Part shown: in pieces, positions 131 to 60,028 of the stretch
Numbering within the stretch: position 1 is the first letter of the stretch
Layout: each line of letters starts with the position of its first letter
Origin: Pseudogymnoascus verrucosus
Taxonomy: Eukaryota
Assembly: GCA_001662655.1 (NCBI GenBank)
Contig: KV460222.1
Direction: 5' to 3' (one strand)
Length of the DNA stretch: 64,000 nt
Program-made: the position numbers and the translations under genes
Notes under the pieces: model-generated
The model's input: the letters and a program-made list of their open reading frames with translations, nothing else
Databases searched by the model: none
What the model was told of the DNA's origin: nothing

Positions 131-540
131 GTCGCCGGGCCGCCACATCCACGGATCCACCTAGTATGGTTCTAACAGTGCATTGCGAAGTAACTACACG
201 ATCTTCTTACAATACGGTAATGGGTACCTGTCTGGCTCATGAATCAGATAGGATAATATATGATAGCTATAGTTGGTTCTAGATACAGTCGCTTGCAAAA
301 TTGGCTTCCCGTCCTTTGTCTCAGCTGCAGGGAATTCAGGCTACTGTACTCGGTGTAACGTCCACTTGATTTAATTCGATGTTAAGCGGATCCAGTAGAC
401 TACCCATACATGAATATTGATGCCTAGATTAGAGTACCAATTTTAAAGAATGAGGCTGTGAGCATCTTGCATTTTCAGAACGCAACAACAGATACCTAAA
501 TCTCATATGCTGAAGTTTGCATGCTGTAGGACCTTCGAAG

Positions 541-3500
541 ATGGTTAGTGATATACCCAAGATGCTCCGACTTACGGATGTTGCCGTGGCTAGCAAGAAC
601 TTACCCCGCTTTAGTCTCTTAACCAGGTATACCCCGAGAACAATCCGGATGCTAGTAAAGCTGCCAAAGTCGAGTGAGTATGCCTCCTATAATGATTGGT
701 AGCCAATATACTAACAATCTGGTGTGTAGTATTATCTTAGTTCACGGCCTGAATCCCAAAAGTAAGGACGATGAAGCACATGCGTTGAATACCTGGACCG
801 AGAATGGCAGACTCTGGCCTAAGGACGATCTACCAAAGAGGCTCCCTGATGCACGAATATCTCTCTATGTATATGATTCATCAGCAGTTTATGGTGGTAG
901 CCAGGCAACTTTTGCCGACAAGGCAAATGAGCTCCTGGAGACCATTAGATGCGACCGGGAGGACTGGGAGGGGAGGCCTCTCATTCTCATGGGACATAGC
1001 CTCGGTGGTATTTTGATTGAGCAAGCCTTGATAAATGCTCGACAAAATGAGACCTATCAGCATATTTATGACGCAACGTATGATCTTATCTACCTGTAAT
1101 ACTTCTAAGTACTGACAGAGAACCCTAGGGCGTGCCTGGCCTTTTTCGGAACTCCCCATGAAGGTGGTTCAGGAGGGATGGTTACCGCGGGGAAGACAGC
1201 TGCAAATGTGGCTTTATGGCTAGGATTTCAAAAGGGGGACAACATTATTGAGACCTTGGACAAGGGTTCTATGTTCACGGATATCCTCAAAGACCACTTT
1301 CGGCAGCAATTTGAGAGTTACCGGATGGTATCTTTCTGGGGTGACAAAGACACAGTATGTTCTACCTCGCGTAATGAGTAACGGTGTAAGACCTCATAAT
1401 TGACTAAAATTTACTAATTGCCCCTTGACTTAGATTGTCTCAAGAGAGAGCTCTAAATTTGGGCTCGCTGGGGGTCGTGAGCGAATCGTTGAGTTGAAAG
1501 CAGATCATCACGGAGTTGCAGCTTTTGGCCACACTACGAAGGATGAAGGTAACCTGAAAAAGGTAACAAGTAATGTGAAATGGTTGTATGATGAGGCCCT
1601 GAAACTGGGTATGTTGGAATCACTCACCTCCCCTCCTAAGGGTATTGTGGCAGATCCTGACAAGGATGCTCTGCTCCGAAAGAGACTGGAAGCCCTTAGA
1701 AACTGATGAATTAGAGTAGTGTTGTCCTTTTTTATTAAGCTAGCGCTACTGAATTTAATTATTCATATGTGATAGATGTGCCCTAGAACTAATTTGGTTC
1801 TAGTTGACAAGATTCAGAGCCATCTTGAACACTCAAGGGTATGTACTACTTAGAGTTCTTAGCACCAACTTCGTCACTAACAGTGCAAACTATTAGGCAA
1901 ATCCTAGACTGCAACAAAACGGTATAGCATTCACAATCAATCTCATTTTACTATTTCTGATTACGAGGCAGCCATGCAAAAAACTCACTGCATCGTACCC
2001 TTCGAAAAGAACCATTGCTTTACCGGCCGTGAGTCAGAATTGACTCAATTGGAAGAAATGCTTTTTGCAGAGGATCAAACAATGAAGGTGGCTGTATGTG
2101 GGCTCGGAGGTGTAGGCAAGACGAGTCTAGTGATCGAGCTCGTTTATCGTATTAGAAAGAATCATGAGAACTGCTCAGTCCTCTGGATACCGGCTACTAA
2201 CCTTGAAAGTCTGCATCAAGCATATCTAGATGTCGCCTGTCAGCTCGGTATACGCGGGTGGGAAGAGGACTTGGCAGATGTAAAAGGACTTGTGCAAGAG
2301 TTCCTGAGCAGAGAAAGTGCTGGGCAGTGGCTAGTAGTTTTCGACAACGCTGACGACATTGATATGTGGGTTGGTACGCCGACGGAACAGGGAACTAAGC
2401 GTTTGATCGACTACTTGCCTACAAGTAAGCTCGGTTGCATCGTGTTCACGACACGCGATCGGAAGACAGCTGTCGAACTTGCACAGAAGAATGTGATGGA
2501 AGTGTCAGAGATGAGCGAAGACGTAGCTACAATGATGCTGCAAAATTGTCTCATTGATCCGGACCTGGTCAACAACAAAACTGACACGTCGAGTTTACTA
2601 AAAGAACTCATTTACCTCCCGCTCGCTATTGTCCAGGCCTCAGCATACATCAACAAGAACAGGATAACCTTCTCTGATTATCTATCCCTCCTAGCAGACC
2701 AAGAAGACGACGTGATTGACCTGCTTAACGAGGAGTTTGAGGACGACGGAAGATATCAGAATGTGAAGAACCCGGTAGCCACGACATGGCTAATCTCGTT
2801 TGAGCAGATCCGCCAACGCGATCCTCTTGCGGCAGAATATCTATCATTTATGGCTTGCATAGATTCGAAGGATATTCCACGGTCTTTGCTTCCTCGAGGC
2901 CAGTCCAGGAAGAAGGAGATGGAGGCAATTGGTACCCTTGACGCATACTCGTTTGTGACCAGGCGTCTGGCAAACGACGCACTTGATCTTCATCGGCTAG
3001 TTCATTTATCAACACGGAATTGGTTGAATTTGAGAAATGAATGGGATGACCGGGCAAATGCAGCTCTGCATCGGGTAGCATACATGTTCCCTCGGCCAAA
3101 ACATGAGAACAGGGCTCTTTGGATGAGCTATCAAATACATGCGCAGTGTGTTCTCACATCGACTAAAGATCGAGAGAAGGAATCTAAAGAATGGTATAGT
3201 TTAGCCTCACAGATTGGAGAATGCTGCCTAAGTACGGGTAAGTATCAAGAGTCTGAGAGCTGGATCCGCCAGACGCTCAAGCTCACGGAAGAGGTGCTTG
3301 GAAAGACGCACCCGGAAACGCTCGCGACTATGAGCAACCTCGCTCTAGTGCTTGATAGTCAGGGCAAATACACTGAAGCAGAGACCATGAACCGTCAGAC
3401 GCTTAAGCTCACAGAAGAGGTGCTTGGAAAGACGCACCCGGATACGCTCGTGACTATAAGCAACCTCGCTCTACTGCTTGATAGGCAGGGCAAATACGCT

Positions 3501-4133
3501 GAAGCAGAGACCATAAACCGCCAGACGCTTAAGCTTAGGGAAGAGGTGCTTGGAAAGATGCACCCGGAAACGCTCGCGACTATGAGCAACCTCGCTCTAG
3601 TGCTTGATAGGCAGGGCAAATACGCTGAAGCAGAGACCATAAACCGTCTGACGCTTAAGCTTAAGGAAGAGGTGCTTGGAAAGACGCACCCAGAAACGCT
3701 CGCGACTATGAACAACCTCGCTGCAGTGCTTAATAGTCAGGGCAAATACACTGAAGCAGAGACCATGAACCGTCAGACGCTTAAGCTCACAGAAGAGGTG
3801 CTTGGAAAGACGCACCCGGATACGCTCGTGACTATAAGCAACCTCGCTCTACTGCTTGATAGGCAGGGCAAATACGCTGAAGCAGAGACCATAAACCGCC
3901 AGACGCTTAAGCTTAAGGAAGAGGTGCTTGGAAAGACGCACCCGGAAACGCTCACGAGTGTTTTCTGTCTTGCCTATCTACTTCAAAACAAGAAGCAGTA
4001 TGAAGAAGCATCGATACTTTATGTAAGGGCTTGCACTGGCTATAAGTCATCGTTAGGCTCCGAACATCCAACCACGAAGGCCTGTGTAAACAGTTACTCT
4101 ACTATGCTTGATAATATTAAAGAGACTAATTAA
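541..4133 (+). CDS. fungal NLR: SesB-like alpha/beta-hydrolase - NB-ARC - TPR (NLR1)
   Basis: Hand-spliced in-frame model: 541-543, 615-673, 730-1077, 1129-1354, 1434-1608, 1804-1838, 1897-1921, 1972-4133, all GT..AG. Motifs: IILVHGLN, GHSLGG nucleophile elbow, FFGTPH, ADHH; P-loop GLGGVGKT, Walker B WLVVFDNADD, LHRLV; kinesin-light-chain-type TPRs (LGKTHPETL..MSNLA). Confidence 0.9.
3267..3955 (+). repeat. 126-bp (42-aa) near-identical TPR tandem repeats, about 5.5 units
   Basis: Recurring ...cagacgcttaagct....gaagaggtgcttggaaagacgcacccgga.acgctcg.gact... at a 126-bp period. Confidence 0.95.
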
Positions 4134-4388
4134 ATGTAGTAGCACTTCGTGGCTATGCTCGAGCAGGTAATTAAGATTAAACCATGAAGATTTCCTTTAA
4201 AGCCATCCTACTCATGTAATTTTGGAAGATGCACTTTTCTTACCTTTTATGGTTGCTGTAACTCGTTGCAAAGTTGCGTTTCCTCCCGTCTGCGACACAA
4301 CTAGTATAGAAACCTGATATGTACCAGCCCTTGAAGAGGTTATGATTAGCTTGAATAATTCTTCTGTTATAAATTTTTATAACTTTGA

Positions 4389-4428
4389 TTAATCGCGACT
4401 GGCACATTCGCGGTTGGGCCGGAACATA
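4389..4428 (-). mobile_element. solo DNA-transposon end
   Basis: 40 bp that are the exact reverse complement of 7561-7600; AT-rich sequence on its left (interior) side. Confidence 0.75.
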
Positions 4429-6296
4429 AATAAACAGCCCCCCTTGCCCGGGTGGCGGATACCTAAGAGATGGGATCTCAGGAGCATCTACCACATCTCC
4501 TGCACCACCCATAATGGTTCCCAGCTCTTCGTTGATTAGATCCGTCAGTTCTATCTCCCATGTGTTCTCATCTGCGTTTTCATCTCCACCTTCGTCTTTT
4601 TCATTCTCCTCCAATGGCTCTGTTACCCTCGCAATACTGGCCCCCGAATTTCGCGCCGCACTAGGACCAGCGCTTGCTTGTGATGCCCTTGGCACCTCCG
4701 GGCTCCTCGTCGTATTGGGGGTCTCATTTACCAGTATTGACGCGCTCCTCGCATTATCCGGTGTCTCATCATCCACAAATGACGACGCGCTTCTCGACCT
4801 ATTACGTTCCTCCTCATCTGCAGGTATCGACAGTGCGTAAGGCAGATTGGGGGGAGGCATGTCTTCGCCAGAAGAGTGACTGTCCTCACCAACAGCTATC
4901 GACAGCGCATGCGGATAGTCGGGACTAGGCATGTCTTCATAAAGAGGGGGTCTGTCCTCCACAACTTCCACGCCATCCCCTCCTCCCCCCACTCCTCCCA
5001 CGGTTGCCCAGCCCCGGGTCTAGCCCACCTCGAATTTCTCCATGCCCAATCCAGCGGAACCCCCCTTGCCTCTCTACGTTTAATAAACTGCGCCGGCACC
5101 GAATCAATCGCAAACCAGACGCCATCAACCGACATCTCCGTCTCGATCCCCAGCAGCTCCAAGCACGACAGCACAGAGAATAGGTGCACTCGCGGCTCTT
5201 CAAGTCCCAGCGCCGGCAGATCCACCTCCTGCGCCTCGTTCAAGCCCGGAAGATTAACCATCACTGGGACGAAGCCGTATCTGAACGTCTCTGTCGCGAT
5301 GTGCGCAATATACACATCTGCGCACTCCATCTGGTGGTGCATCTCGAAATCAAACATTGCAGCTCCTGGACGTCCCTGTCAACCCGGTCCGTCACTGGAG
5401 AGCCTACCGGGGCCGGTCAACTCACCGTAATTCGAATATAGCGCGACTAAGCTTGTGGGCTGAACATTCATCGGGTCAAGCGCGCGCTCCAGATTCGTCT
5501 TATTGATGCGCCGCTCCAGGCATAGAGGTAAGATGGTTTCCGCGCTCAGGCCGAGGGCAGTGCTATCGCGTGTTCGTGAGGGGGGATAAGTCTCATTGCC
5601 GTGCTGGTCGATAGCAGCAGAGTGTTGGACGCGGTAGAATAGCCTGGGGCGTGGTATCACGACTGGGAGGGTGAGAGAGGCGGGTGGGTCGACGGGTTTA
5701 AAAGTCTCGATGAGAAGGGGTATATGCTGAATTTCAACAGACGGTTCGAGCAATATTGGGTCGAAGAAGTCTGGTAGAGGGGGACCAGCCTCGTCTACTG
5801 CCGGCCGCGGTGGCACACGATCGAGTATCTCGCCAATTCTCTCCCCGTACATTGCGATCCACCCAGCCAGCGATCCCTCCGCCGGCCCCTGGAACGGAGC
5901 AATATCAGGCCAAGGCTCCACGCCCTCCTCCTCCTCTTCCCAATCATATTGCAGCGGCCCCAGCCTCTCTCCCGCAGCAGCCCGTCCATAATCCCACCGC
6001 GGAATAATATCACGGACACGGAGCAAATTCCTCGTCTGTAGCGGCGCAATCCCTTGCTGCGGGCGCAACTGGCCGTACGTCCCTGGTGAGATCTCATTCG
6101 CCCCCTGGAACGGAAACGCGGGGGGTTGCTCTGGGGCCCTCAAGGTAGGGATGTCGGCTTGCCGCGACGCGCGGGGAGGGAGCGCCCACTCTTCCTCGTC
6201 TTCTTCTATGCCAGGAAGAACTATCCTTGGGGGGCTGAGGGGGTCGCCGCTGGGTAGTCTGAGCTTGACCAATTTCGAGGGTCGTTCTGGCGCCAT
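4429..6296 (-). CDS. DUF7587-like domain protein with low-complexity flanks; probably frameshifted and 3'-truncated
   Basis: Exon 6296-5426, intron 5425-5366 (GTGAGT..CAG), in frame into the 5357 ORF. Motifs PRLFYRVQH, PTSLVALYS, VYIAHIA, VWFAIDSVPAQFI. Coding-like sequence continues in another frame after the G-rich run at about 5000 and runs into the transposon end at 4428. Confidence 0.55.
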
Positions 6297-7560
6297 TTGG
6301 TGTATCTCGGCCCCTGTTGTCGGGAGGTAGTAGGAGATGGCATCGTGGGTTTTGTGGCGGGGTCTGGATCATTTAGATTCCGTGGTGTGGGGGGGAGGCT
6401 CATTGGGAAGCCGCGAAGGAGGTGGTGACTGCCAGCTTTGTGAAGCTGGAGTCTGGCTGAAAGGCAGCATTGTCCTGCTCGGGCTTCACGTTGGTTCTGT
6501 AAGGAAGGAAGCTGCGAGATGGTGGCGACTGCCGCCTTTGTGAATCTGGCAAGTCTACTATAAAGGAAGGCACGTCCGGGGAAGCATCCAGACGTAGACG
6601 GCAAGCACGTTGAAGCATGAAAGGCAATCACACCCCATTGAAGCCCCATACTACTTCCCTACGTACGGCAGGCACGATGACAGTAGCTCTTGCCAACTTT
6701 ATGAAGCCAGTGCGTCTAGCATAAAAGGCAGGCGCGTCCGGTCATGAAAGACCAGTGCACGCAGGACATGAAAGGCAAGAGCATCCCATAAACCTCATAC
6801 CAATTCCACGCAGAAGGAAAGTGCATCCCACAGACAAACACCAACGCACAAACGGCAGGCGCGTCCAATACAGCTATATAGACGGAAGGAAAGAATCCCA
6901 ACCCCCCCCCATCCCCCCTCGTGCCTTCCCATCATCACAAATACCAGTAAAAAAACGGCAAGAGCGCCCCTTCGCGCCTTCCCACAACAACAACAACCCC
7001 TCATAAAACAGCAAGAGCCCCTCTACCATCACCATAGCTCCCGTCTTCACATTCGCCCACCACATATCCCTCCTTTTTACACACCCTCTCCCAACCAACC
7101 CCCCCACCAGCAACCAAAAAGCACAGCCACACCCACAAAACACAGATACAGTCATCCCCCCGCCCGCCCCCCTCTAGCATCTCCAAAGGAAAGGGCGGGC
7201 TTACAGCCGCCCATACATCCGCTCCCCGCCCCCGCCTCCGCTTCCGCTTCCGCCTCCCGACCTGAGGCGCCGCGGGCCTGGTCCTGGGGAGGAGGTGAGA
7301 TGGTGAGGATGCGGTAAGCGCTAAGCGCTATTGTTGTTAATCGTGCAGCAAAGAAGTGCGTTCGCGAGCTTTGACAATAAGATACCTGTGAATCGTACTG
7401 AACAGAACCGGTATAAAGCCCGAATAGCTCCAATGGGAACTCGGCAGCGCCGTCAACGATCTCGATCCTAGCACTTCTGAGACTAAACATACAACGTTCG
7501 CACCACCATCTAACATAATCACACGCACAAGGGCAGCCACCATTTCCAAGTTCAATAGTA

Positions 7561-22599: not shown

Positions 22600-25005
22600 C
22601 TAAGCTAGAGGTCCAAGTAACAAGCTCGTCCTCTTCCAATATTCCTGGGCCGACTTGGTGAGCCTCTCGTTCGATGAAGACGTCAAATCCACTTGTTTTG
22701 TCAAAGACTTCTCGAGATCAACCAGCTTGTCCTTAGAACCAGGCGTGCCAGGCACCGAGAGACAGAGCCGGAGAACGACGGTGTCGAATAAAGTCTGCAC
22801 CAGAATATCTTTAGCAACGACGGCAGGATCGACAACATCACCGGCAGTACTATCCACAGCTTTGTCCTCAGACTCTGCCTTTTCAACTGTCGTCTCATCA
22901 TCAGCATTATCTCTATCGCCATTAGTCTTCGGCGTCTCCTTCTCCGCAGACTTCAGATCTGCAGCCATATTGCTTCCCAGGTCGTCACCCATACACCCCT
23001 TCAACACATCCACAGCCGCCCGACTCCACAAGTCCCGTCCAACACCCGCCATGGCCACTGTCGCCGAGTTCAGGAACTTGAAAGTCGGCGGCGAGGGGTA
23101 AATCGGCAATTCCGGCTCTCCCTCCCACAGCGCACGTCCTGCGACGCGCTTTCTTGCCCGCAAAGCAGCCCGGTATGCCGGCACCGTCTCGGACGAGATC
23201 TTCGTGGCGAGGGCCTGGTGCATCTTCGGCACAAGCGAGACTCCGAATGAGGATAGATCCGTTTGCTCGGGCAGCTCGGCGCGTAAGTCTCGGAGGACGC
23301 GAAGGATGAATATTGTGGTATCGCCTACATGCTCGCTCTTTTCGTAGGTGCTGAATGAAGCTTCCAGCTTGGTGTGGAAGGTGATGAAAGCCTGTTCCAA
23401 GTTCGCCTTCAGGCGAGACTGGAGCTGTTCTGGATCTTCTTGGCTCAGTGACCTCTGCCTATCTTCGAGCACGTCTTCGTCTTCTAGGCTGTCTAGGTCG
23501 TCGTTCCATTTCTGCTTCTTGAGTTGGTCAATTGCTGTCGCTACCTCGTCTACCAGACGCTTCCATTCCTCGTACGACTTGACGACCCTTGAGACTGCGT
23601 TATCCCTTCCATGGACATTGTTGACAATTGCTTGCTTGAACGCCAAAGCGCCGTTGCCAAGCCCCATCTCCAGCAGCTTAGCATCCCATAAGCCTCCTTG
23701 TCGTTCTACGCCTCCAGATGCAATGACACCCAAAGCTGCCTCGACCTCGGTGTTGACGAGATGCAGCTTGTCAACTCTGGCTTCCAGTATTCCAACCATT
23801 CGCTCATTAACAACCTTTCTTAATCCATCAAGCATCACGGATGAATCAAACCCCTTCGCCTTCCCTCCTTCGGCCACCCACTCCTCGAAGGCCTTAGTCC
23901 TTAATTCAGCCACAGCGCTGAAGTTCTGGACTGCATCTAATATCTTCTCAAAGCCTTCCAGGAATACTTCAGAGGCCTTCTTTGCCCATCCCTTGAGCGT
24001 TGCGACTGCTTGTGGGCCATCCAGATCGTCGTGCCGGATATACGGCGTGAAGTATGTGATTTCGTCCCCAAACCACCTCTCGCATATATCCAGTCGCAAG
24101 CCTTCCAGTTCCCTGACACCCTCATCCTTCAGCAAATGATCTCCTTTCAAGTTCAAAAGCGCATCAGCCAGCCTCCTCGGCACTAATGCCTGTACATCAA
24201 CCAAGGTCTTGGCCAGTAATCCCAACGCGTGTATAATATGTTTTTGCACTCCTCCTTCTCCCAGATCTCCCTCGTCCTGGATGTCAAGAGCAGTCGACAT
24301 CGCCGCACCTCTCACGTGTAGGAATTGCCTCACCACATCCCTCGCGCCTGAGCTTGTAGCCAGACTGTACGCGCACAGAGCGTTCACCAGCTCTTCCCTA
24401 TCTCCATCCAGGTTCTCCATTGCCCTTTCAATGGTCCTCAGCAGACGTCGTCGCAGGGACCCGAGTTTCCTCTTCAACTCCGCAATCACCGCTTCTTCCT
24501 CCTCGTCCTCATCCTCCCCATCATCACCCAAGCTCTTAGCCAATAGTCTCGAAAGCACCAACGTCTTCGCCGTCGTCACCAGTCGCCTTCCTTTCCTCAC
24601 TTCTCCCTCTCTGCCCCTCAGCAACCGCCCAATGGCAATCACACAGCCCCCAAGCACCTTAACCCTCGCCGCCCTTCCCAGCCTCCTTTCCGCATCACCA
24701 TGTCCCGCCCTCGCCCCCAGTTTTCCCAGCGCATCAACCCTGCGCCCAACAACAGCCATCCCGCATCCGTCCGCCACGCCCCCAAGCTTGGTCTCCACAA
24801 CCTCAATGTCGCGCCGCATATCCACGATCATCTCCGCCGTGCCCAACAGCTGTCGGTACGAGCCGCCCACGAGCGTGCGCAGGCGCGCATTCTTCTCATC
24901 GAGGGAGGTATGGAGTTGGCGATGCAGCAGGCGGACTGTGGGGAGGGGCTGCTTGAAGACTTCGGCGGCCGTGGCCGTGCTTAGGTCGGGGGTGGAAGAG
25001 GCCAT
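22600..25005 (-). CDS. COG1: conserved oligomeric Golgi complex subunit 1 (Vps51/Vps67 domain)
   Basis: Intronless ORF of about 800 aa; N-terminal DEKNARLRTLVGGSYRQLLGTAEMI; C-terminal EYWKRTSLLLGPLA. Confidence 0.85.
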   Translation of the reverse strand: MASSTPDLSTATAAEVFKQPLPTVRLLHRQLHTSLDEKNARLRTLVGGSYRQLLGTAEMIVDMRRDIEVVETKLGGVADGCGMAVVGRRVDALGKLGARAGHGDAERRLGRAARVKVLGGCVIAIGRLLRGREGEVRKGRRLVTTAKTLVLSRLLAKSLGDDGEDEDEEEEAVIAELKRKLGSLRRRLLRTIERAMENLDGDREELVNALCAYSLATSSGARDVVRQFLHVRGAAMSTALDIQDEGDLGEGGVQKHIIHALGLLAKTLVDVQALVPRRLADALLNLKGDHLLKDEGVRELEGLRLDICERWFGDEITYFTPYIRHDDLDGPQAVATLKGWAKKASEVFLEGFEKILDAVQNFSAVAELRTKAFEEWVAEGGKAKGFDSSVMLDGLRKVVNERMVGILEARVDKLHLVNTEVEAALGVIASGGVERQGGLWDAKLLEMGLGNGALAFKQAIVNNVHGRDNAVSRVVKSYEEWKRLVDEVATAIDQLKKQKWNDDLDSLEDEDVLEDRQRSLSQEDPEQLQSRLKANLEQAFITFHTKLEASFSTYEKSEHVGDTTIFILRVLRDLRAELPEQTDLSSFGVSLVPKMHQALATKISSETVPAYRAALRARKRVAGRALWEGEPELPIYPSPPTFKFLNSATVAMAGVGRDLWSRAAVDVLKGCMGDDLGSNMAADLKSAEKETPKTNGDRDNADDETTVEKAESEDKAVDSTAGDVVDPAVVAKDILVQTLFDTVVLRLCLSVPGTPGSKDKLVDLEKSLTKQVDLTSSSNERLTKSAQEYWKRTSLLLGPLA

Positions 25006-25419
25006 GGCTTGGATGCCGAGGGGGGCCGAGTGGTTGGTGGGACGTGGTGGGGGGTTCACGAATTGTCGGTCTAGGTTATGAGGAAATTTCAGTATAGCAT
25101 TGGCCGCGCATTTCGATTTCTTTCACGTATGAACCATGTGGGCGAGTTCCACGGTAGCTTGGGAACAAAGTAAGCTGGATAGATGCTATAATCTACGGAG
25201 CTGTTATGTTGTCGTTATCCCAGCGGTCCTTTTGGTCCGTGCGCTACTATTATAGCCTCGCCGAACCACAGACTCCAGCCTCGCCTGCCAATATCAACTT
25301 GGCATTACAGCACAAAATCAATCTCGGAATTTCAAATACACCATGGTAAAAAACGAATGTACGATTGTTCATAAATAGTAGGATCTGAAACAAATGCTTG
25401 CACGATTAAATAAACACAG

Positions 25420-29183: not shown

Positions 29184-30424
29184 TTAACGGGCATATGAGC
29201 TGATATAATACTTTGCGATGTTAGAAACAGTATCCTCATTTATGCCAGGTTAAACTCACCGTGAGGACGGATTCTTTTGCACCGGGGTCTTCATAGTTCG
29301 TCAGGTATACGTAAAGGATCAACGCATGGTTGTCCACAAAACCTGCAATATATCAAAGTCAGTATACATTCCAATTCATCATCATACAACAACATACAAG
29401 CAATAACCTTCCCACCCAGCCTTCCCACACTAAGAACCCGACTCCAATCCTTCCCATCAATTCTCACCGTCGCCCACGCATCCGGCCCCGCAGCCCTCAT
29501 CTTCTCCGTCGGCAAATCATCCACATCCCCGTCGATCTGATTCGGCTCCAAATCCGGATTCGTCAAATCATTCCACACGCTCTCAATATTCAGCGCATCC
29601 GTCGTAATACTCAGCTTCAAACTCCCATGCATATTCGCGCTCAGCTCCAACTTCGGCGTATTAGCAGTACTATTCACAGCCGCCGCTGTATTGGTCGTCG
29701 TCGCGAATGCGAGCTTTGTGAACCGGTCCGAGATGGCTTTGAGTTGCAGCAGCGGCGGGAGGAGGATATGCACATCCGAGTCGCGCACTTTGGGCTCGTG
29801 GATCCCTTCTACGCCTTCGGGGGAGAGGACACGGATGGGGATTTCCTGGGTGACGATTGTTTCACGCTCGGCGGCACTGCGGGCGTCGAGACTCTCTTCG
29901 TGGAAGTCGTCGTCGGCGAAGGGGTCGTCATCGCGGCGGTTGCGGAGGAAGCCATTGCTGTTCCCGGCGCTGACGGTGTTGGTTATGATTGTCAGGGAGA
30001 GGATCGCATCACCATCTCTCTTTGTGAGGCGCAGAGATGCAGATGTGGCGTTTTCTGCGGATCTGAGGGCTGTTTGGAGGGGTGCCAGGGGAAGCTCGAT
30101 ATTGATGGTGTTGTTCTCGATGCGCGACTGGACCGAGTACTCGTAGAATAGAGAGTCAATTGAGATACAGCTGCATCCATATTAGTTGTCTCTCTCTGCT
30201 ATGTAGATTTGAGGAATCATACGCCCAGACCTGTGATCCCTGCTCGGGGATTATAGTGAACCGCACATTTTCATCGTCCAGCCTGACCCAGGCAATCTTC
30301 CCCAGGGTCGCCAGAGACGCCGTTAACTCTAGAAATCGCGTCAGAAGAGGTACGTAGCTAAATTCAGGACAGCATAATTACTAGAGAATGTCTTTATATT
30401 CCTTAGCGAGGTTTTAAACCTCAT
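29184..30424 (-). CDS. HUS1: 9-1-1 checkpoint clamp subunit Hus1/Mec3
   Basis: Spliced: MRFKTSLRNIKTFS, KIAWVRLDDENVRFTIIPEQGSQVWA, NNTINIELPL, ITQEIPIRVL-like, DVHILLPPLLQLKAISDRFTKL, ..YYISSYAR*. Confidence 0.93.
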
Positions 30425-34187: not shown

Positions 34188-37100
34188 CTATAACTCCGAC
34201 ACATCCCTCATAAAAGTAATACTACCCCACCGTAGACTCACCTTGCCCTCCTTCAAATCCTCCAACTCCTCCGCCATTTCTTTCTCCACAACACCAAACA
34301 GTCTTTTTGCCTCGACTGTAGTCGGATCATCGTCTCCCAATTCTTCACTCGCCATCCTCGCAAACATCCGAATGACATACCCCGCTTCCTCCAGCGCTCC
34401 CTGCCTGAGCAATTCTTTCCCCATCCGCAATCCTTCCTGACGTCGCATCACCGCAGGCGTACTTCCATACAGCAACTTGAACATTTCCTCTTTCTTTTCT
34501 TTGTACGCTTCTCCGACCGCTTCATCATAGCAACAAGGCTGTCGGTGGAAGATCTCGAGTAGCAGGGTAGCGTGTACAGTGCTCAAGCTCTTCGGCCCAA
34601 ACACCTTTTCCGTCGTCTCCAAAATCCGTACGAGGTACGCCTTGGCTTCGCCATGGGTAGCATGATCTTGCAGAAGAAGCATCACCTTCATTTTGCGCAT
34701 CCACACATACATGTCCTTGTAATGCACCCGTGCAATGTCAGCTTCAGAGAGATCGACGGAAGGATACATCAGTTTGTCTACCAGGGCCGTTGCTTCTTCA
34801 GTTTCCCCTTGCTTCATGAGTAGCCGAAAGAGCTCGAATGATGCACACTCATACTTCAGATCGCCTGGGGTGTGCTGAGCTATAGTTTGGCGGAAGAAAA
34901 CCATTGTGCTTTGGATATTGCCGGCCAGTCGGTCGCGTGCAGCTAGAACCTGCTGGGATTCAAGGGCTTCTGGCATTGGAGTCCCTCGGAAATGACAGAC
35001 GATATAGGTCAGTAGCCACATTAGAAATGCCGACACCCGAGACTTCCAAGTACTTTCGAGTGGCAGATGGCTGATGCGATAATACAATGAGCTCAACTCT
35101 GGCTTTCCACGCCCAACGTATGCCGCAGCCACCGCTCTTGTGAGCTCAGAAAGTAGTGGAGTGAGATTAGGGCTCGGGTTTCTGTAGATCTCCTTTAAAC
35201 AAGACTGGTCGAAAGTCGTGGCAGGCCGCGTTCCATCTTCGATTTGCTTGAGTGCTGCCATTGCCGATGGCGTCATTTGTTTCTTGAGATACTGTCTTAT
35301 ACACAAGTCATGCACCTCGTCTTCAAAATTGGAGTACGCTCCACAGATCCCCCGCACAGTCGCAGCAACTCCCAGCGTTATGGCCGTATATTCCGTATCC
35401 TCGGTATTTTCCAAACTGTCCATGACCATTATTGAGTACATATGTAGCTCCTGCATTAATCCAGCATCTCTCCACATAACAATATGCGAATGCATTAGAA
35501 AGGTGAGGCAGAACCATATCTCTGTCGACGGGAGGCCATTTTCTGGCTGCTTTAACCTATCTTTCACTGTTTCTAAGACGTGCTTGACGTGAGAGAAATG
35601 AGATCTCTCAAATGCATTCGCTTTTGTAAGCGTAAAGAGAGTATATGAAGAGAAATGAATCCATCTCCATTGATCGACCTGAGAAAGCCTCGCTTGCACA
35701 CATTGATGGACGAGCCCATGCATCGAGATAAATGCGCCTTGTTCCGTCCTGCGAATCTGAATGAGAGAATAGGAAAGTAAAACCTTTTTCGCGTCATCAA
35801 AATCATCTGAATAGTCTTGATTCCAGTATTTGTGCATCTCTGTCACATGCTTTGAGACTAAGAGGCTTTCAGGTACAGCTGTCCCATCCAAAGCGCTTAT
35901 CCAAGCAAGTAGATATTGTGCTTTAATGTTACGCTTGATAATGGCTGTTCGGGTCACCATATAAGTTGCCATCATGGATGATTTATGGCGACTAAAACGT
36001 GGAGATTCTTCGAGGACTTCCTTTTTTCTCTTCTCGAATTCCATCAAATAGTCCTCGGGCCTGGATGCCATGTCGTTGTTATGCACATAAGCACCTGCAT
36101 GCTCAACAGCCAGAGCAAGGCGCCCAAGCTTGTTTACGATCTCGGTACAGACGGTCATTTGCTCCTTGGTCGGGTTTGCGATGCAGGCTTTCTGAAGGAA
36201 CAGCGCTTCAGCATCTTCCTTTTTCATTTCTCCGAGCTCAATTGTAGCAGGACAAAAATTAGCTGCACCGCGATCCTGACTAGTGAGTATGATATGGCCC
36301 TTATTTCCATGAGGTATATACTCTTCAATGCTGACTCCATCGAGGTCGTCTGCATTGTCAATAATAAGAAGCCAATCCCCATTCTCTTGTTTTCGAAGCC
36401 AAGATTTGACAGCCTCGATTGCTGCAACCTGAGCAGCAACGTCTGTTTCAGCCAGTTCCTTTCCAACAGCTTCGGATAGACCAAGGTGGCTCGCAATATC
36501 AGCGTAACCTCTCCGAATTTCGGAAGTGTCTTTGGCATTGACAAAGAAGATCGCAGAGAAATCTTGACTGTACTGCAAAGCATAGTTGACCGCAACTTCG
36601 GTTTTGCCAGCGCCACCAATTCCCCAGATAACGGCTTGGCGTCGTTTTACTGAATTTTCCGCCGTCATGTACTGTCGCAGCTTTGCAAGCTCCTCTTGCC
36701 GGCCGGTGAAGTATGAGTTCGACATATCTTTGAGCATATTAATGGTGATTTTCTTGACCTTGCCTGTGATCGATGTTTTTGGTTAGTAGGTTCCACCAAG
36801 CAGTACCAGTGGCGTATTACCTGACACAACTGAGAAGGTATTAGCAAAATTAGATCAATCAATGGGCCAGACGAAAATAGGACGAATTCATTATGTTTCT
36901 CAAATACAGAAATTAGAGAACCGTACCCCTTTTCTGTTCATCATCTGTCTCCCACCGATGGTCTATTTTGATCGCCGCATCTTCCATCATTAGCAGAAGA
37001 TGCCCAGATATTTTCTCATAACCATTATCGTCCCGTGACAGAAATCTGACCATATTTCGATGGTCAGCCATGATTGCCACTGCTTCTCCATCAGCAACTC

Positions 37101-38145
37101 CCGGAACCATTGCAGAGCCTATCGGTACAATCTGCGGCTCTTGTTAGAAGACTATATTAGCCCAGAGATCTTGCCTCTTACTATCATTGACTTGCCAAAT
37201 GCAGTCGGCGTCGGCAGAGTCTCGTAAGCAAATTTCGTCGTAAACTGGTTACTTATGGTCGCAAACTGGCCCAACTGTTGATGCAGCAGCTGTGAATCCC
37301 TTTCCAGATTTTTGATAAATTTGGAATCAGCTTTGACGAATATGGACGCTATGTCGATGATTGCCCTTCCCAATGCGACTCCGTTGCCGCCTTGATGAGG
37401 AGTGCCCATGAAGACTATTCCATAAGTCGAGAGTGCGATTGCCTTGTGGTCTTCGAGTGCACCGTTCCTCGCAGCATCTGAATGGATCAAAGCCTAGACA
37501 AATAAGTATCTCCCTGCAAACTAATGTGAGGGAAATGGAACCTACGCTTTTCACAACGATACCTCCCAAGCTGTGAGCGATGAAAATGATAGGACGTCTC
37601 TGCGTCTACATCGGCGTTAACAATATCGATGCTGAGTTGGATAAGGTTAATACTTTTGTAAGCCGTCTTTTTAGACACAAATCGCTGATGAGGGTCCTTC
37701 CATGGTCATATATATGCTGCTGGTCAATGCCGTGGGTACCACCAAACACATCTGCGTTGTATCCCCAACTAAAGATCCTCGCATTTGGGAGATCAGTGGG
37801 AAGTAGATCTCGCAGCCAAAGAACATCATTTGCGGCAGTCCATGTCTTCTCTCGGTGGCCATTGAGTCCATGAAGAGCCACGATGCTCAATCCAATATTT
37901 AGCACGCGGTTTCAAGACACCAAGGTGAGGACGACTTACTCAACGATGGGGTCAGCTCCTTCAGCAAAGATCGCGAGTCCGAGCGATTTTGTTTCCGAGA
38001 GCGACTGCGAAATGACAGTCGACTTGGAATATTTGGATGATCGAGGGATGATCTGCCAAGGAAGCTTAGCAGCCGCTCATTCTGTAGCGCAATCTCAGCT
38101 TACTCGAGAGATACCGTCGAAGAGGTTTTTAGCAGGTCTCTCCAT
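34188..38145 (-). CDS. fungal NLR: SesB-like alpha/beta-hydrolase - NB-ARC - degenerate TPR-like region (NLR2)
   Basis: Hand-spliced in frame: MERPAKNLFDGISR|..ADPIVD|IVALHGLNG..|AHSLGG|FMGTPH|ADHRNM|9-nt exon 36829-36821|36763-34188. P-loop GIGGAGKT, WLLIIDNADD, MHGLV. Confidence 0.88.
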
Positions 38146-43016: not shown

Positions 43017-44792
43017 ATGCCGTTCAAATCCCTCCACCCAGATCTAAGTATTCCAGAAACTGACGTCCTAACGTATCTCTTCCCTCCACTTGAGACGCCG
43101 AGCAAAGATCCACTATGGATCGATTCGAAAGACCCAAGCATCTCGCTATCGCCAGCAGAGCTCTTTCTTTGGGTTAGGCGCCTCGCCCTGGGCCTCGAGC
43201 GAACAGGTGCCAAAAAGGGAGAAGTTATTATGATTTACACACCAAACCACATATACGTGCCAGTCGCATATCTGGCGATCTTGAGCGCAGGCTATGCCTT
43301 CAGTGCCGCAAATCCCGCCTATACTTTGCGTGGTGAGAAAGGGGTCTTTCGAGAACATGGAGCATGAGCTAATAAGAACAAGAAATGATCCATCAAATTA
43401 AGAACACCGAAGCAAAGGTAATCCTTGCTCATCCAGATATGATGGAAACTGCGCTCGCGGCGGCCTCAAAATCCGGGGTCCCTTCTTGTCGCATCTTTCA
43501 GTTCTCAGATTCCTACTGCCCCCCACTTAAAGGTATTAAGGACTGGACAACTATGGCTGCTACCCCACAAGAAGGCGAGCGGTATATTTGGAGGAAGCTC
43601 ACGCACAAACAATCCAAAACCGTAGTTGCAACAATCAACTACTCGTCTGGAACCACTGGACCACCAAAGGGAGTTTGCGTCAGCCATCACAACTTGATTG
43701 CGAATGTCGAACAAACGATATACATGCGCTTTCAAGAAAAGCCGTACGCATACGCCAATCGCCCACAAGAGCGATGGATTGGCTTCCTCCCGCTTTATCA
43801 TGCATACGGCCAGCTTTACACAATACTCATGGCCGTGAAATTGAAGATTCCGGTCTACGTTATGAAACAATTCGTTTACCGCGATTTCCTGCAAGCCATC
43901 CAAGATTACAAGATCACAACCCTTCAAGTCGCACCACCGATTTTGGTCATGCTTGCGAAGAGAGCCGAGACAACCGAGTTTGATATCAGTAGTGTGAAGG
44001 ATGTGCTATGCGGTGCAGCGCCGCTGTCAAAAGAGTTGCAGAATGAGTGCATGGCGCGCTTCGGATTTAACGTCGTGCAAGGGTGGGGGATGACCGAGGT
44101 TACATGCGGTGCAATTCATGTGCCTGGGGGGAGGAGAGACGACACAGGAAGTGTGGGTGAGCTGGATCCGAATTGCGAGTGCAAATTGCTGGACGATGAC
44201 GGAAATGAGGTTGGTGTTGGAAAACCAGGAGAGATGTATATCCGGGGCCCAAACGTCTGCCTTGGTTACTGGAAAAACGATGTTGCCACAGAGGAATCAA
44301 TCAGTTCGGATAAGTGGTTAAGAACCGGTGACGTGGCGGTTAGGAATGAAGCTGGATCCTTTTGGATTGTGGATCGTAAGAAGGTTCATACTCGGAACAG
44401 CCCTTCTCTTTGGATACGTTTTGTTGACAACGACAATTTAGGAACTCATCAAGGTAAACGCATTACAAGTTGCTCCTGCTGAGCTTGAATCTGTTCTTCT
44501 TGAGCATGAGGATATCGCTGATGCTGCCGTGGTTGGTATCACCCTACATAGCGAAGAATGGCCAAGAGCATACGTTGTTATGCAAGAGCATGCGAAGGGC
44601 AAGGTAACACCTCACGATATCCAGCAATGGATTAAGCCTAGAGTAGCAAAGCACAAATGGCTTGTAGGAGGAGTAACATTTATCACAGATGTGCCCAAAC
44701 TTGCTAGCGGAAAAATTCAGAGGAAAGTTGTGAAAGATTGGGCAAAGGAAGATGCAAAGATATTAGAGACTAAAACCAAAGCAAGATTTTAG
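43017..44792 (+). CDS. 4-coumarate-CoA-ligase-like acyl-CoA synthetase
   Basis: YSSGTTGPPKG, QGWGMTE, WLRTGD, DRKK|ELIK, SGKIQR; 2 introns; ends KARF*. Confidence 0.93.
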
Positions 44793-46030
44793 AAGCACAT
44801 GAAAAATGAAATCATGTTATTTTTCGAAAGTAATTTCTTTACATTAAAGTTGGCCGCTCCGCCAAAGCAAGTAGCTGTAGTTAGGAATGCATCATCAGGT
44901 GATAAGAAGCCCAATTTTAATGATCAAGACCTCCATCCAAATAGTGTCTCAATCAATTGTGACTCGAATCTTCATCGTCGAAACCAACCTTCGCCTCTAT
45001 ATGGGCCGGGGTACGCAGTTAGCTCTTGCGGAAGCAGTCGGCGTGCACCAGCGGTTGTTCACCGCCACTTGACTATGGCAAATTTTACTATTGTTATAGC
45101 TATGTAAACTCATTCATGGAAGACCCTATACTATCTCAAGCCCCTGAGTGGCTTACTTCATACATCTAGCCTTGAAAACCGGACGTCAATTACTATAATT
45201 GAAGCTGTATCTGCAGCTTGGGAGGCATAAATATAGTAGAGAAAGCTTTGGCTATATAGACTTCTAAAGCTGAGTGGGAAGCCGAGAAACAGCTTTTGAT
45301 GGAAGCCCGAGCCGCTGGCATAGCTGTTGCTCAGTGGGCAACAGAAGCGAGGGTTGGTTCCGACAATGATAAATTCCAGCTCACAAATCTAAATAGCGCC
45401 CGTACGGAACACCAAATTCTGCCAATTTGCATTTATCCTCATCTTGGTGGGTGCGATAAGCAAGGATGTAGAACCCCTGCACTAAAAGCGTTGTCTTGTA
45501 GTTTCCGGGAATGCCAAGAATGCGGGGAATGTGGAGTACGGGTACGTTTTTCCGACCTTGAGGAACTACTTCCCCGCATTTTGTTAGAATAGTGTCGGAG
45601 GCAGCATAGCCTCGACAGTCGCAAAAAGAGGCCCTAGAACAGTTTTGGGATGCCTAGTAAGTGGATATTGTGATATTCCAGGTAAATATCGTTGGATAGC
45701 CGAGTTATGTGGTTCGACTTTGTTGAGGAGCTGAGGAAAAATAGCCGGGATTGGGTTCCTGAGGAAACTCAGAACCCGAATACACTCCGGGCCTGGATAT
45801 GCAAAAGCGAAGTGCAACTCGGAATTATTTAGACTAATTTGATCTAGCATTTGAGTGCCAACTAGTTGACACTATGGGACCCGAGGACCAGCCGAAACTG
45901 GTTCAAATGATCCGTTTCCTCTTGCGGTTCGATTTTCTCATTATCAAGATCGTGTACCTTCGTTCTTTAAGGAGAGAAGATGTCCCTTTGTTGTTTCTGG
46001 AAGTTGTCACAATCAAAGAAAAGAACAACG

Positions 46031-48238
46031 ATGTCTCCATCTGCTGTTCTAAGTAACATTGAACCTGAGAATGCTCCACCGGTCATCTTAAAAGGCATTC
46101 AGGATGACAAGAGTGCATTAGTTGTTGTTGATGACATCGACGGCGCGAAGACTCCATTAGAAGTTACAAATGGCGTAGATATCGCGACTAGTCAATCTGT
46201 TACACCAAATGGCATTAACGGCGCCAATGGGCATGCAGAGTTCTCGTACCCAGAATCAGAAACTCAGGGCCCATACCAGGTTGTGCGCCAGTATCACTCA
46301 AAGCCTTCAAAATTACGCGTCGCTGGTATTGGAGCTGGCGCATCGGGTATGTATTGATGAGGTCTCAAAGTTATCGTATGCCGCTAATAGATCTGCAGGA
46401 ATATGCCTGGCATACAAGATGGAGCAGATGCTCGAAGCTGGCTCATGGGAGTTGACGCTTTTTGAGAAGAACCCACACTACGGAGGAACCTGGTACGAGA
46501 ACACGTAGGTTAATAGAAGTCATAATATTTTCAGGAAACCACGTTAATGTCTTTGCAGATACCCCGGAGTTGCTTGCGATATTCCATCCCACCTTTACAC
46601 GTTCTCTTGGGACCCAAATCCAGATTGGAACCACTACTATGCGTATGGTCACGACATCCAGGCATACTTCGAAGGCTTCGTCAAACGACACGGGACGGAG
46701 AAATATATGCAGTTGAATACAAAGCTAGTTGAATCGGCATGGGATGACGAAGAAGGAATATGGAATATCACCCTTACAAACACCGTGACCGGCGAGATCA
46801 CGAAGGATTGGGCGCACGTTGTTATCAACGGGACCGGAATCTTGAATAACTGGAAGTGGCCAGAAATCGAAGGTCTTCATGACTTCACGGGTCCAATATT
46901 GCACTCGGCTAACTGGGATCATTCCGTGGATTTGGCGGGTAAGACTATCGGTGTTATCGGCACTGGCTCGTCATCTGTCCAAATCGTCCCACAATTACAA
47001 AAGAGAGCAAAGGAGGTTCAGGTGTTTATGAGGAGTCCAACGTGGATCAGTCCTCCATTCGGCGGTGGTAAGTCTCATCACCTAAGAGGGATTATAAAAG
47101 TTCGCTGACGATTAACGTTTCAGGTGTCTTGGAGTCGGAACTGAAGAAGGGTGCAGAGTCGTCGCCTGCTGAGAGACAGTACACATTTACTGAGGAGGAC
47201 AAGCGGAAATTTAAGGAAGATCCGAACCATCTGCTCCTCTTTAGGAAGAAGATTGAGGCCGAAATTAACTCATTGTTCGGCATGTACCAACAAGGATCCG
47301 AAGTCTCACAGAACTTCAGAGAGGTCATCACAGCCGAGATGAACAGACGACTAGGTGAGGGGCATGAAGAGCTGAAGGAGTTCATCATTCCTAAATGGTC
47401 CCCGGGATGCCGAAGAATCTCGCCTGGTGATGGATATCTCGAGGCTTTGGTTCAGGACAATGTTACGCCAGTGCTAAAAAATATCACGAAGGTCAACAAA
47501 GACGGGATTGTGACGGTAGATGGAAAACAGCACTATATGGACGTATTGGTCTGTGCAACGGGCTTCCAGGTTGCCTTCAAGCCTGCCTTCAAGATAATCA
47601 ATGGCCGAGGAATAAGCCTTGATAAGGACTGGGGCAGTGGAGTAAATCTTTACATGGGCCTGTCCGCTCCTCGTTTCCCCAACATGTATACCATTGTGGT
47701 ATGTATACTGCTGGACTAAAATTACCTTCCCCTGCTAACCCATGTATAGGGACCAGGCGCAACGTGGAGTAGTGGTACCTTATTGCCTTCCATCGAGACC
47801 TCTGTGGAGTATGCCGTTAAGATGATGCGAAAGATCCAGACGGATAAAATCAAGTCCATAGCCGTCAAGCAGGATGCCCTCGACGATATCTATAGCCACT
47901 TCGACGAGTTCCATAAGACCACCGTGTGGCAAGAAGAATGCCGAAGTTGGTTCAAGGACGGCAAGAGCAAAAACCGAATCTACCTATGGCCTGGCTCGGT
48001 ATGTTGAGGTCATCTCCTAGCGTCGTTGTGGCGACACTGCTAATATATCACATCACAGACCATCCACTTCCTCAAGACCATCAAGGATCCGCGTTTCGAG
48101 GATTACGATATCAAGTATCGCCATAAAAACCGATTCGCATTCCTGGGCAACGGAGAAGTCAAGGCGCACACGCAGCAAAGCGTAGAGGGATTGGCTCCAT
48201 ACATTCGTTCCAGCGACCACGATTGGTGTGTCGGGTAG
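46031..48238 (+). CDS. Baeyer-Villiger-type flavin monooxygenase
   Basis: GAGASG, GGTWYENTYPGVACDIP, FTGPILHSANWD (FxGxxxHxxxWD fingerprint), GTGSS, CATGF; multi-exon. Confidence 0.93.
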
Positions 48239-48763
48239 GCGGTTGTATTTATACACAACAACTCCTTATTCGCGTCAGCCCGTGCGTGTCTGTGTGTACA
48301 GAGTAGCCAATGATCCATCCCCATTTGTACATACATTTATAGGGATTTAATAGAGGAGTCCCTTCTATTGAATGAATTGCGTATAATTATTCAGTAAACA
48401 TATACAAGTTATGCGGATACCGAACTTTGCTTCCTCTAACCTAAAGCGTTTGTCACGACTGTTAGCGATTCGTTAGCTGAAGAATTTAAGACAGATTAGG
48501 GCTAATCAGAGCCTTAGCTTCCCCCAGAGTGCCCTAGATCTAGCCACTAACTACATACTAGCGAAATCGGCCCAGTCTAGACAGATGTTCCATGAATCTT
48601 CAAGAGCCCCTTACCACTTCCATCTGGCCGGGACCTAGCCTTGGTACTTGCATTACGCTGCCACTCGGCTCCCCGCTTCCCCGCTTCCCCAAGCTCAGGT
48701 CCCACCCATCCGCTTTGTTCTCCCCTTCCCTAACAATTTACACCACGTCGCGCCGTCTCGTCC

Positions 48764-48947
48764 CTTCCCTCCTCTGTGCTTCTTCTTCTGTCTCCGTCTC
48801 AACCTCCATTTTCGTGCAGCCTCGCCCCTTCCCTCCTCTGTGCTTCTTCTTCCGTCTCCGTCTCAACCTCCATTTTCGTGCAGCCTCCTTCCCTCCTCTG
48901 TGCTTCTTCTTCCGTCTCCGTCTCAACCTCCATTTTCGTGCAGCCTC
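48764..48947 (+). repeat. 60-bp pyrimidine-rich tandem repeat x3
   Basis: Units 48764-48823, 48828-48887, 48888-48947; units 2 and 3 identical, unit 1 differs at one base. Confidence 0.95.
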
Positions 48948-49053
48948 TCTCAATTACAGCCGTGCCACATTCGCTTTAGGCGCCTGAAATACATCTTCCG
49001 ACTTTCTGAGAAAGGACTCCTAACCCCACCGTGATTGGGAAGTGACCGAGGCA

Positions 49054-51897: not shown

Positions 51898-52325
51898 CTT
51901 TGCTTTGAGAAAGGGGGGTTTTGGCGGCGAATGTTAGTAAGGCGTTATGAAGCAATATAACTAGATTAGACCTTGAAGGGGAGTAACGTTGGTTGTAGCG
52001 TATTGAACATAGTGGCTTAATGAATGCCACTATGTCTATTACGCCACGACTTACGTTAAGTTATGATAGATAAATAAATAAATGCTGCAACAGCTTTTGA
52101 TTATCTTAATAAATCACCTAGGAACTACTCTATTAGTTAATACCGACATGAGAACCCCATGCGAAAATTATTAGAAGTGCACTTATGGTTATCTATGGTA
52201 GTAGTAAAGTCTATTCGAACGCTTGTTGATCTAGAGGGCGATTTTATTAGAAAACTGCGGTTGATGTGATGATGGTAATAAAATAATTTATATTTTTGCC
52301 CATGATTCTAAAGTGTGAATTACAA

Positions 52326-55734: not shown

Positions 55735-56229
55735 GTTGATGCTGCAAAATATCCCAGTTGAGAATTGTACATACAGAGTTAATCGTTCGTTCACTCCTAC
55801 ACTACCAGAGGTGATTTAAAAATAAGTTATTAACCGAAGTCCTAAAAGCTGTGGACTGTAAATGTAGTGTGCCTTAAGCTGTACATTCTTAGGCAAGATC
55901 ATCACAGGTTCTACAATGGCCTAGATTTAGTCTTTGTTCACTCATAATCACCTTCCATAAATTTACGAGCGAAGCAGGAAAATCAACTATAATTGTAATT
56001 ACATAAATTTAAATATTTTATTGGTATTTCACATGTGGTAATATGGCCATTGTATGTTGTGTCTAAAAATATGATTATTTATTATTACATTAATATGTTC
56101 GATAAATAATCACCTCGCGACTATTTTTATAAGGCCTCAAGTCGGTCGATAATGATAAAGTTGAAGAACACATTCAATAAATAAATCGATCAATTTTTTC
56201 ATAGCTAATCATTACATCGCATATATCCC

Positions 56230-60021: not shown

Positions 60022-60028
60022 TTTCGTT

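Follow-up and report, generated by a model that had tools for sequence, protein, structure and literature searches.

The first gene (541–4133, + strand) in a stretch of 64,000 nucleotides from Pseudogymnoascus verrucosus (GenBank contig KV460222.1; here called the window) is a fungal NOD-like receptor (NLR; NOD stands for nucleotide-binding oligomerization domain), made up of an alpha/beta-hydrolase of the SesB-like type, an NB-ARC domain and TPR repeats. The locus probably makes two proteins, the full-length receptor and a free form of the hydrolase that ends in a tail of the MIM1 type, one of the MIT-interacting motifs (MIM); we put the probability of this reading at about 0.6. The two products are indicated by conservation of the tail as protein, by purifying selection in the nearest ortholog and by an RNA contig over 1608–1707. 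What is novel is the combination of an alternative NLR isoform with MIM mimicry, each of which is already of a known kind. The original prediction, made from the sequence of the window, was upheld in its gene structure, its two products and its MIM1 match, and was not upheld in its suggestions of a recent gene fusion and of a second motif, MIM2.

The junction intron and its read-through tail

The intron between the last hydrolase exon and the receptor module (the junction intron) starts at the donor G|GTATGT (1608/1609) and ends at the acceptor ...ttctag| (1803). It had been singled out as unusually long, and at 195 nt it does exceed the other six introns of the gene (71, 56, 51, 79, 58 and 50 nt); the statements made about the open reading frame (ORF), the donor and the motif also held on re-checking. 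The stop-to-stop ORF at 1434–1706 (+), with the C-terminal end GMLESLTSPPKGIVADPDKDALLRKRLEALRN*, reads from the last hydrolase exon into this intron. The in-frame read-through extension (1608–1706, +) consists of 32 codons and a stop and would form the alternative C-terminus of a hydrolase-only product of 302 aa. It contains the MIM1-type motif DALLRKRLEALR (1665–1700, +), followed by N and then by the stop, which places the motif one residue from the C-terminus. The stop is the first of two tandem in-frame stops, TGA TGA (1704–1706 and 1707–1709, +). The intron is of two parts, as the first 98 nt (1609–1706) have a GC content of 0.50, like the exons (0.46–0.47), and the last 97 nt (1707–1803) have a GC content of 0.32 and include a T-run. 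From its composition, this AT/U-rich 3' half (1707–1803, +), with a branch-like CTAAT and the acceptor, is a candidate 3' untranslated region or cleavage region of the short product.

The motif was found by a regular-expression search with the published MIM1 consensus, (D/E)xxLxxRLxxL(K/R) (PMC2884189, PMC11998489), and the match is exact, as had been predicted. It was the only match when all six frames of the window were translated (127,996 positions), for which 200 block shuffles gave a chance expectation of 0.065 matches per window, or 0.025 when a stop within 3 residues was required. Given the many things that a reader can look for, the rarity of the motif at the level of the window is by itself weak and no more than suggestive. 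That the tail is beyond chance follows from its conservation in homologues, and not from the shuffle rate in the window.

The nearest ortholog was found in a soil-metagenome contig of 1235 nt (L001), the one locus obtained in a search with the 90-aa query. Its tail has 32 codons, with the stop in the same place, reads ...DEDAQLRTRLERLRN and is an exact match to the MIM1 consensus; a single TGA stands at the position matching the tandem stops of the window. Nucleotide identity between the two was 0.84 in the tail and 0.59 over the 75 nt past the stop. The ratio of non-synonymous to synonymous substitution rates (dN/dS, Nei-Gojobori) was 0.39 in the tail (6.5 synonymous and 8.5 non-synonymous differences) and 0.13, 0.09 and 0.10 in three hydrolase exons, and the two changes in the L85 codon of L001 (CTG>TTA) are synonymous. 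The tail evolves faster than the enzyme yet under constraint, as short linear motifs on flexible linkers usually do. A protein search limited to similar lengths produced one further close relative, P0132 (89% identical), which has a one-codon in-frame insertion and again the exact motif. The length of the tail and the pattern of L, R, hydrophobic, L and R are kept in P0008 and P0007. The models of P0001 and P0002 extend into the tail before a splice.

Conservation, probable expression and MIM1 likeness of the tail

A search of 1.84 billion representative sequences with the 90-residue ORF (HMMER, E<=0.001) found 73 matching representatives. Many of these were short ORFs on fungal contigs that continue beyond the last hydrolase exon, across the splice junction without a break, and carry, close to their stops, strings such as LEERLEALKSE, LEARLARLR, LQARLAKLRGD and LEQRFAALRES. 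Circularity was avoided by re-scoring the 73 using phmmer with the exon only (58 residues, no tail), after which 58 remained significant at library size, 12 did not and three had no match. The 58 comprised 10 long annotated proteins in which splicing leads to a NOD or another module, eight sequences with tails of <20 residues and 40 with read-through tails of 20–100 residues. The pattern L..R[LFMIVW]..L was present in 16 of these 40 tails, always ending 1–9 residues before the end of the ORF, whereas after shuffling (2000 shuffles) it was present in a mean of 0.32 and a maximum of four of the 40. Read-through of the equivalent intron in homologues, which the original prediction had pointed to, therefore bears out the conservation of the motif, as does the dN/dS in the nearest ortholog.

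Alignments of motif-bearing sequences (A1–A3), which were selected for the motif and show its shape and not its frequency, had tail columns L81, R84 and L88 invariant or nearly so, matching or exceeding most of the hydrolase exon in conservation. Within the family, the RL position is L, F, M, I or W and the last position is K or R, and acidic residues precede the motif in the tail, as fits MIM1. The first residues of the tails were also informative. In 32 of the 40 tails an NGT codon comes first and gives G, S, C or R; the next residue in those 32 is E in 23, K in three and M in two (GAG, AAG and ATG), and the third residue in those 28 is L in 16, S in seven and F in two. These are the translations of G|GTGAGT, GTAAGT and GTATGT, and the ORFs therefore read through a maintained 5' splice site. 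Judging from these codons, the ORFs are more than unspliced stand-alone genes, and their donor has been kept at the phase-1 position seen in the window. Leotiomycete and Sordariomycete homologues have the tail at this phase-1 junction too, and in some of them the module downstream is NACHT-ANK instead. It is very probable that the tail is a real, selected C-terminus and not intron noise.

A profile search for longer proteins gave 62 matches among 7999 scored candidates, and inspection by eye found the motif in at least 17 of the 62. Annotated proteins of 295–325 aa that carry it come from Colletotrichum (P0082, P0085, P0086), Fusarium/Neocosmospora (P0089, P0090), Coniochaeta (P0083) and Pseudogymnoascus sp. 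03VT05 (P0100). Over 295 residues, P0085 shares 86% identity with the N-terminus of a 1274-aa NB-ARC-TPR protein from a sister species (P0079), and over 258 residues P0089 shares 87% identity with the N-terminus of a 1109-aa NACHT-ankyrin protein, also from a sister species (P0123). Identities of 86–87% suggest that the short proteins, which here are of 297–310 aa and end in the tail, and the NLR N-termini are two readings of the same kind of locus, and it looks as though different NOD and repeat modules stand behind one common junction. The original prediction had offered a recent splice-fusion of a hydrolase gene as an alternative. The junction is common to a Hymenoscyphus homologue (P0005) and to NACHT-ANK, NB-ARC-TPR and other architectures, and the fusion of hydrolase and NOD is therefore old and not recent.

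RNA and DNA contigs from four public runs were compared with positions 450–3150 of the window. The X12 and X13 contigs run through introns and behave as DNA of relatives. Those of X2, a soil metatranscriptome, are 90–99% like the window and contain the joints 673>730, 1354>1434 and 1607>1803, all GT..AG, the last with a depth of 18.2 and 29 letters on its short side. A loose end of X2 at 1839 continues into the first letters of the exon at 1897 and then into adapter. The annotated homologue P0004 has both micro-exons (DDTITSRLEHSRANPRLQQN), and P0005 has a recognisable first one. The predicted splice route through two micro-exons was thus confirmed by the joints in the RNA of a relative and by these two proteins. 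Another X2 contig (record 19; 116 nt, depth 12.6, seven differences) covers 1608–1707 and thereby the donor, the entire tail and its stop codon, unlike the other introns reached by X2 contigs, across which these contigs are joined. Sequence that reads into the tail is thus present in the RNA library of a close relative, and it is quite probable that the NLR locus itself expresses the tail. X2 cover was missing over 1724–1802. An X2 contig ending at 1707 in Illumina adapter was considered as a transcript 3' end and rejected, since adapter marks the end of a library fragment, the contigs show no ends and other X2 contigs also finish in adapter.

The MIM1 consensus was matched exactly in the window, L001 and P0132, and across the family the tail is best conserved at the L, R and L of the consensus. 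A 32-position profile built from 23 tails was compared with 177,635 distinct PDB sequences and gave 11 matches at E<=10. Three of these were MIM1 peptides crystallised with their partners, from CHMP1B (4txq_C, E 0.14), CHMP1b (3eab_G, E 0.48) and Vps46/Did2 (3ggz_E, E 0.48); retrieval was weak, with the profile string deLeaRLaaLR aligned with DELSQRLARLR. In an AlphaFold2 model of the homologue P0090 (16-row alignment; mean predicted local distance difference test score, pLDDT, 48.4), a helix is predicted on the motif, at 288–299, after a coil at 274–287, with a pLDDT of ~32, too low for the model to carry weight. [quoted passage not shown] The LTSPP upstream of the motif had been read as a loose MIM2. 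The pattern [LVI]P.[VLI]P was found in two of the 40 tails (P0018 and P0057) and not in the window, and we do not retain that reading.

Proposed mechanism and alternative explanations

In the explanation that we propose, splicing at 1608|1804, the splice seen in the RNA of the close relative, would yield the 1010-aa receptor. Where the junction intron is not removed, translation would continue for 32 codons and produce the 302-aa free hydrolase, which would lack the NOD module; the cause may be intron retention or cleavage in the U-rich 3' half. The tail would comprise a Pro-containing linker, an acidic patch and DALLRKRLEALR as a short C-terminal helix, and this helix may dock on the MIT domain of Vps4, of Vta1 or of a PalB-type or other fungal MIT protein. 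Such docking is the most likely mechanism because the motif matches MIM1 in sequence, in C-terminal position and in its pattern of variation, and on these grounds binding of the tail to the predicted MIT-domain partner is put forward tentatively. Docking would bring a lipase-like enzyme to sites of ESCRT-III, or would set it in competition with ESCRT-III tails. It is more doubtful that SesB-like NLR loci throughout the Pezizomycotina are two-in-one genes, with an intron-encoded MIM1 mimic and a free lipase on Vps4/Vta1 or another MIT protein.

Several observations weigh against this explanation. The motif was absent from 24 of the 40 read-through tails and is not a universal feature, and among close relatives it is lost in P0012, has a degraded end in P0053 and reads DALLRNRME, with M at the RL position, in the F-4513 homologue P0001, whose model splices there. 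The RNA evidence consists of contigs from one soil metatranscriptome of a relative and not of the strain of the window; these do not reveal where transcripts end, or their strand and level, and carry-over of DNA or pre-mRNA could account for the one contig listed over the tail. No PDB match was individually significant. The eight that were not MIM1 peptides were designed helical proteins or coiled coils, the HY5 bZIP zipper, ApoA-I peptides and one enkurin-domain protein, and a search of PDB with the tail of the window alone found no ESCRT protein and one irrelevant match (E 1.6). In some gene models the tail is treated differently: those of P0079 and P0087 (Colletotrichum) hold it inside the NLR by means of a later donor, and that of P0093 (Rhexocercosporidium) has a small intron within the tail, the removal of which brings the motif directly onto the hydrolase. 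The structure of the isoforms may thus vary between lineages. Splicing of the P0093 type, if real, would be another route to a motif-bearing C-terminus.

The closest rival, which we regard as unlikely, accepts two products and a selected tail and takes the helix to be a generic amphipathic one, serving self-association, contact with membranes or lipid droplets, or another partner such as the NLR's own domains, and not as a ligand of MIT domains. The tail profile does match designed coiled coils, the HY5 zipper and ApoA-I peptides at E values similar to those of the MIM1 peptides, the host protein is a hydrolase without the ESCRT-III fold, and MIT binding is a prediction. The invariant residues are, however, exactly the MIM1 positions, the Arg included, the motif lies 1–9 residues from the C-terminus in all 16 motif-bearing tails, and MIM1 peptides account for three of the 11 matches drawn from 177,635 sequences. 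The sensor repeats are an unlikely partner because the tail occurs with both NB-ARC-TPR and NACHT-ANK bodies. It is improbable that the tail belongs to stand-alone hydrolase genes and persists here as an unexpressed remnant of exon shuffling, conserved only because the fusion is young. Annotated tail proteins of stand-alone length exist (P0082, P0085, P0089, P0090, P0083 and P0100), the domains of fungal NLRs are known to re-assort (PMC4986451), and the genomic DNA compared was that of the window and one contig of 1235 nt. Against this, the shared junction makes the fusion old; the drop in identity to L001 past the stop, the dN/dS of the tail and the synonymous changes in motif codons point the same way, as do the in-frame indel in P0132, the RNA contig over the tail and the donor-type start of 32 of the 40 tails.

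The remaining two alternatives have far less in their favour. In the Colletotrichum models P0079 and P0087 the motif is internal, and by analogy the tail might be a constitutive linker within the NLR that is spliced from a donor downstream of the motif. This is very improbable for the window, where two in-frame stops (1704–1709) directly follow the motif and precede any other donor and where the RNA joint uses 1608|1804; in Colletotrichum itself, proteins of the same kind from C. zoysiae and C. spaethianum end five residues past the motif. Least probable of all is that frame and motif both arose by chance in an ordinary intron of somewhat greater length. The string is short and degenerate, and the rate of 0.065 per 64 kb leads to an estimate of tens of six-frame chance matches per fungal genome. 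Frame, length, stop position and motif are nevertheless kept in orthologs and in homologues of ~40% identity, and a chance ORF was rejected as it is contradicted by the L001 comparison, by the count of 16 in 40 tails and by the tail shuffles.

Gene model, neighbouring genes and comparison with known systems

The exons of the gene model are 541–543, 615–673, 730–1077, 1129–1354, 1434–1608, 1804–1838, 1897–1921 and 1972–4133 (all +), and the coding sequence is open over 1010 codons. Exon 1 (541–543) appears to be the start codon alone (ATG|GTTAGT), in accordance with both an X1 RNA contig and the N-terminal sequences of P0004 and P0005. The first intron (544–614, 71 nt) is supported by the X1 contig, which links the start-codon region to 614/615; the start of exon 2 was placed at 615 because of this joint and of MSLNQVYPE in P0004 and P0005. 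The NCBI models of the relatives P0001–P0003 read through the first intron as MVSDTPKM..., unlike the model with an exon of the start codon only. Exon 2 (615–673), the N-terminal leader of the hydrolase domain, is supported by the 673>730 joint (GT..AG) in X1 and X2 contigs and by the open spliced coding sequence. The alpha/beta-hydrolase core is in exon 3 (730–1077), which matches Abhydrolase_6 in Pfam (E 8.8e-06), and Hydrolase_4 and DUF676 more weakly, and includes a GxSxG nucleophile elbow, GHSLGG, as in lipase-like hydrolases. Exon 4 (1129–1354), also of the hydrolase domain, has the 1354>1434 joint (GT..AG) in an X2 contig and 89% amino acid identity to L001 (dN/dS 0.10). Exon 5 (1434–1608), the last of the hydrolase, contains the ADHH histidine region, and the donor G|GTATGT that closes it is in phase 1; it is this exon that the 73 library representatives match.

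For the phase-1 intron of the full-length mRNA (1609–1803, 195 nt) the cut in the X2 joint 1607>1803 is offset by +1. The micro-exons 6 (1804–1838, 35 nt) and 7 (1897–1921, 25 nt) encode a linker. The former is represented by an X2 contig piece at 1803–1839 and by homologous stretches in P0004 and P0005, and the latter by the loose end at 1839, which leads into the letters of 1898–1904, and by ANPRLQQN in P0004. The last exon (1972–4133) encodes the NB-ARC NTPase (PF00931, E 1.4e-09; 38.1 bits, cut-off 23.5) and seven TPR_10/TPR_12 repeats (TPR_10, E 3.6e-82, seven stretches; TPR_12, E 1.4e-77). The seven TPR units at 3230–3960, of 126 nt each, are near-identical as DNA. Repeat arrays of this type are the kind that varies in copy number in fungal NLRs, and the repeat number differs in P0003 and P0004 of related strains. 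The closest database proteins (five matches among 271 candidates) were hypothetical NLRs from four Pseudogymnoascus strains (81–97% identity over the query) and from Hymenoscyphus fraxineus (74% identity).

Directly downstream of the NLR, the region 4240–6368 (-) contains two long open frames (259 and 329 aa) with a high content of Pro, Ser and Glu, for which there was no Pfam match at E<=1e-5. A second hydrolase-plus-STAND gene was found at 34188–37930 (-). Its 864-aa ORF (34188–36782) has AAA_22 and DUF7779 domains, and its upstream exons (~37293–37890, -) match the hydrolase of the first gene with 29–34% identity (tblastn E 8.8e-11); no MIM1-like string was found in the read-through past its last hydrolase exon. 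Housekeeping neighbours at 22600–25122 (-) and 29291–30181 (-) encode a protein whose N-terminal domain is of the Vps51/Exo84/COG1 type and the checkpoint clamp subunit Hus1. The region 43376–63230 contains genes for an AMP-binding enzyme, an aldehyde dehydrogenase, a zinc alcohol dehydrogenase, AtuA, an acyl-CoA dehydrogenase and a PRISE-like reductase, with a fungal-specific transcription factor domain gene (49498–50400) amid them, and these metabolic genes may form a catabolic cluster under common regulation.

The full gene is a typical fungal NLR of the SesB-like/NB-ARC/TPR class, of which Podospora Pa_2_10340 is an example, and shares the three-part architecture of that type. The lipase-like SesB is among the commonest NLR N-termini, with SesB-like domains making up 13–20% of those in fungi (PMC4986451, PMC9815663). 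These two large surveys make no mention of ESCRT, of Vps4 or of an intron-encoded alternative C-terminus, and a micro-exon case in Tuber was the only alternative splicing of a fungal NLR found reported in them. No link between fungal NLRs and ESCRT was found in the literature searched, the scope of which did not extend to the survey supplements, where isoform data may be present. Searches for a MIT-interacting motif or for intron retention in fungal NLRs found no literature; among the matches listed, no paper combined MIM1 with DUF676, and none on ESCRT-III/Vps4 with NOD-like receptors in filamentous fungi concerned fungal NLRs.

A conserved alternative C-terminus means that current annotations miss a second product of such loci and that the lipase can exist free of the receptor. 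The feature is widespread, and the lipase carries a specific putative docking motif that is directly testable. If the two-in-one reading is true, fungal NLR immunity and cell death would be tied directly to the ESCRT machinery, and a NOD-less lipase would be present at sites of ESCRT membrane remodelling or repair. In animals, ESCRT-III works against cell death of the lytic kind. Should Vps4/Vta1 be the partner, fungal NLRs and ESCRT would be linked for the first time, and MIM mimicry, so far described for viruses, would have a cellular case.

Truncated NLR isoforms arise in plants by alternative splicing or intronic polyadenylation, as in tobacco N, RPS4 and RPP7, where likewise one locus supplies a full receptor and a product with the N-terminal domain only. 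We know of no plant truncated isoform that gains a conserved docking motif from a retained intron. In the stand-alone SesB/SBP lipases that Daskalov is said to have described in 2012, a C-terminal amyloid motif reportedly sets where and when the effector acts. Unlike in these, the motif in the window is a helical MIM1-type string and not an amyloid (sigma or PP) motif, and the source of the free lipase would be the NLR gene itself.

The tail closely resembles the MIM1 tails of ESCRT-III proteins (Did2/CHMP1, Vps2/CHMP2 and Ist1), which have the same consensus at the same extreme C-terminus after an acidic stretch, and to whose CHMP1B and Did2 peptides the family tail profile aligns with non-significant E values. 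It differs from them in that the carrier is an alpha/beta-hydrolase and not a Snf7-fold protein, that the tail is encoded in an NLR intron and that MIT docking is predicted only. Viral mimics likewise have a C-terminal MIM on a non-ESCRT protein. The baculovirus protein Ac93 of Autographa californica multiple nucleopolyhedrovirus (AcMNPV) has a C-terminal MIM1 with which it binds Vps4/Vta1 (PMC11998489), and mimicry by human cytomegalovirus (HCMV) reportedly recruits VPS4A (PMC11218997). Unlike these mimics, the tail described here is found on a cellular fungal protein, at an immune-receptor locus, and is conserved across two fungal classes.

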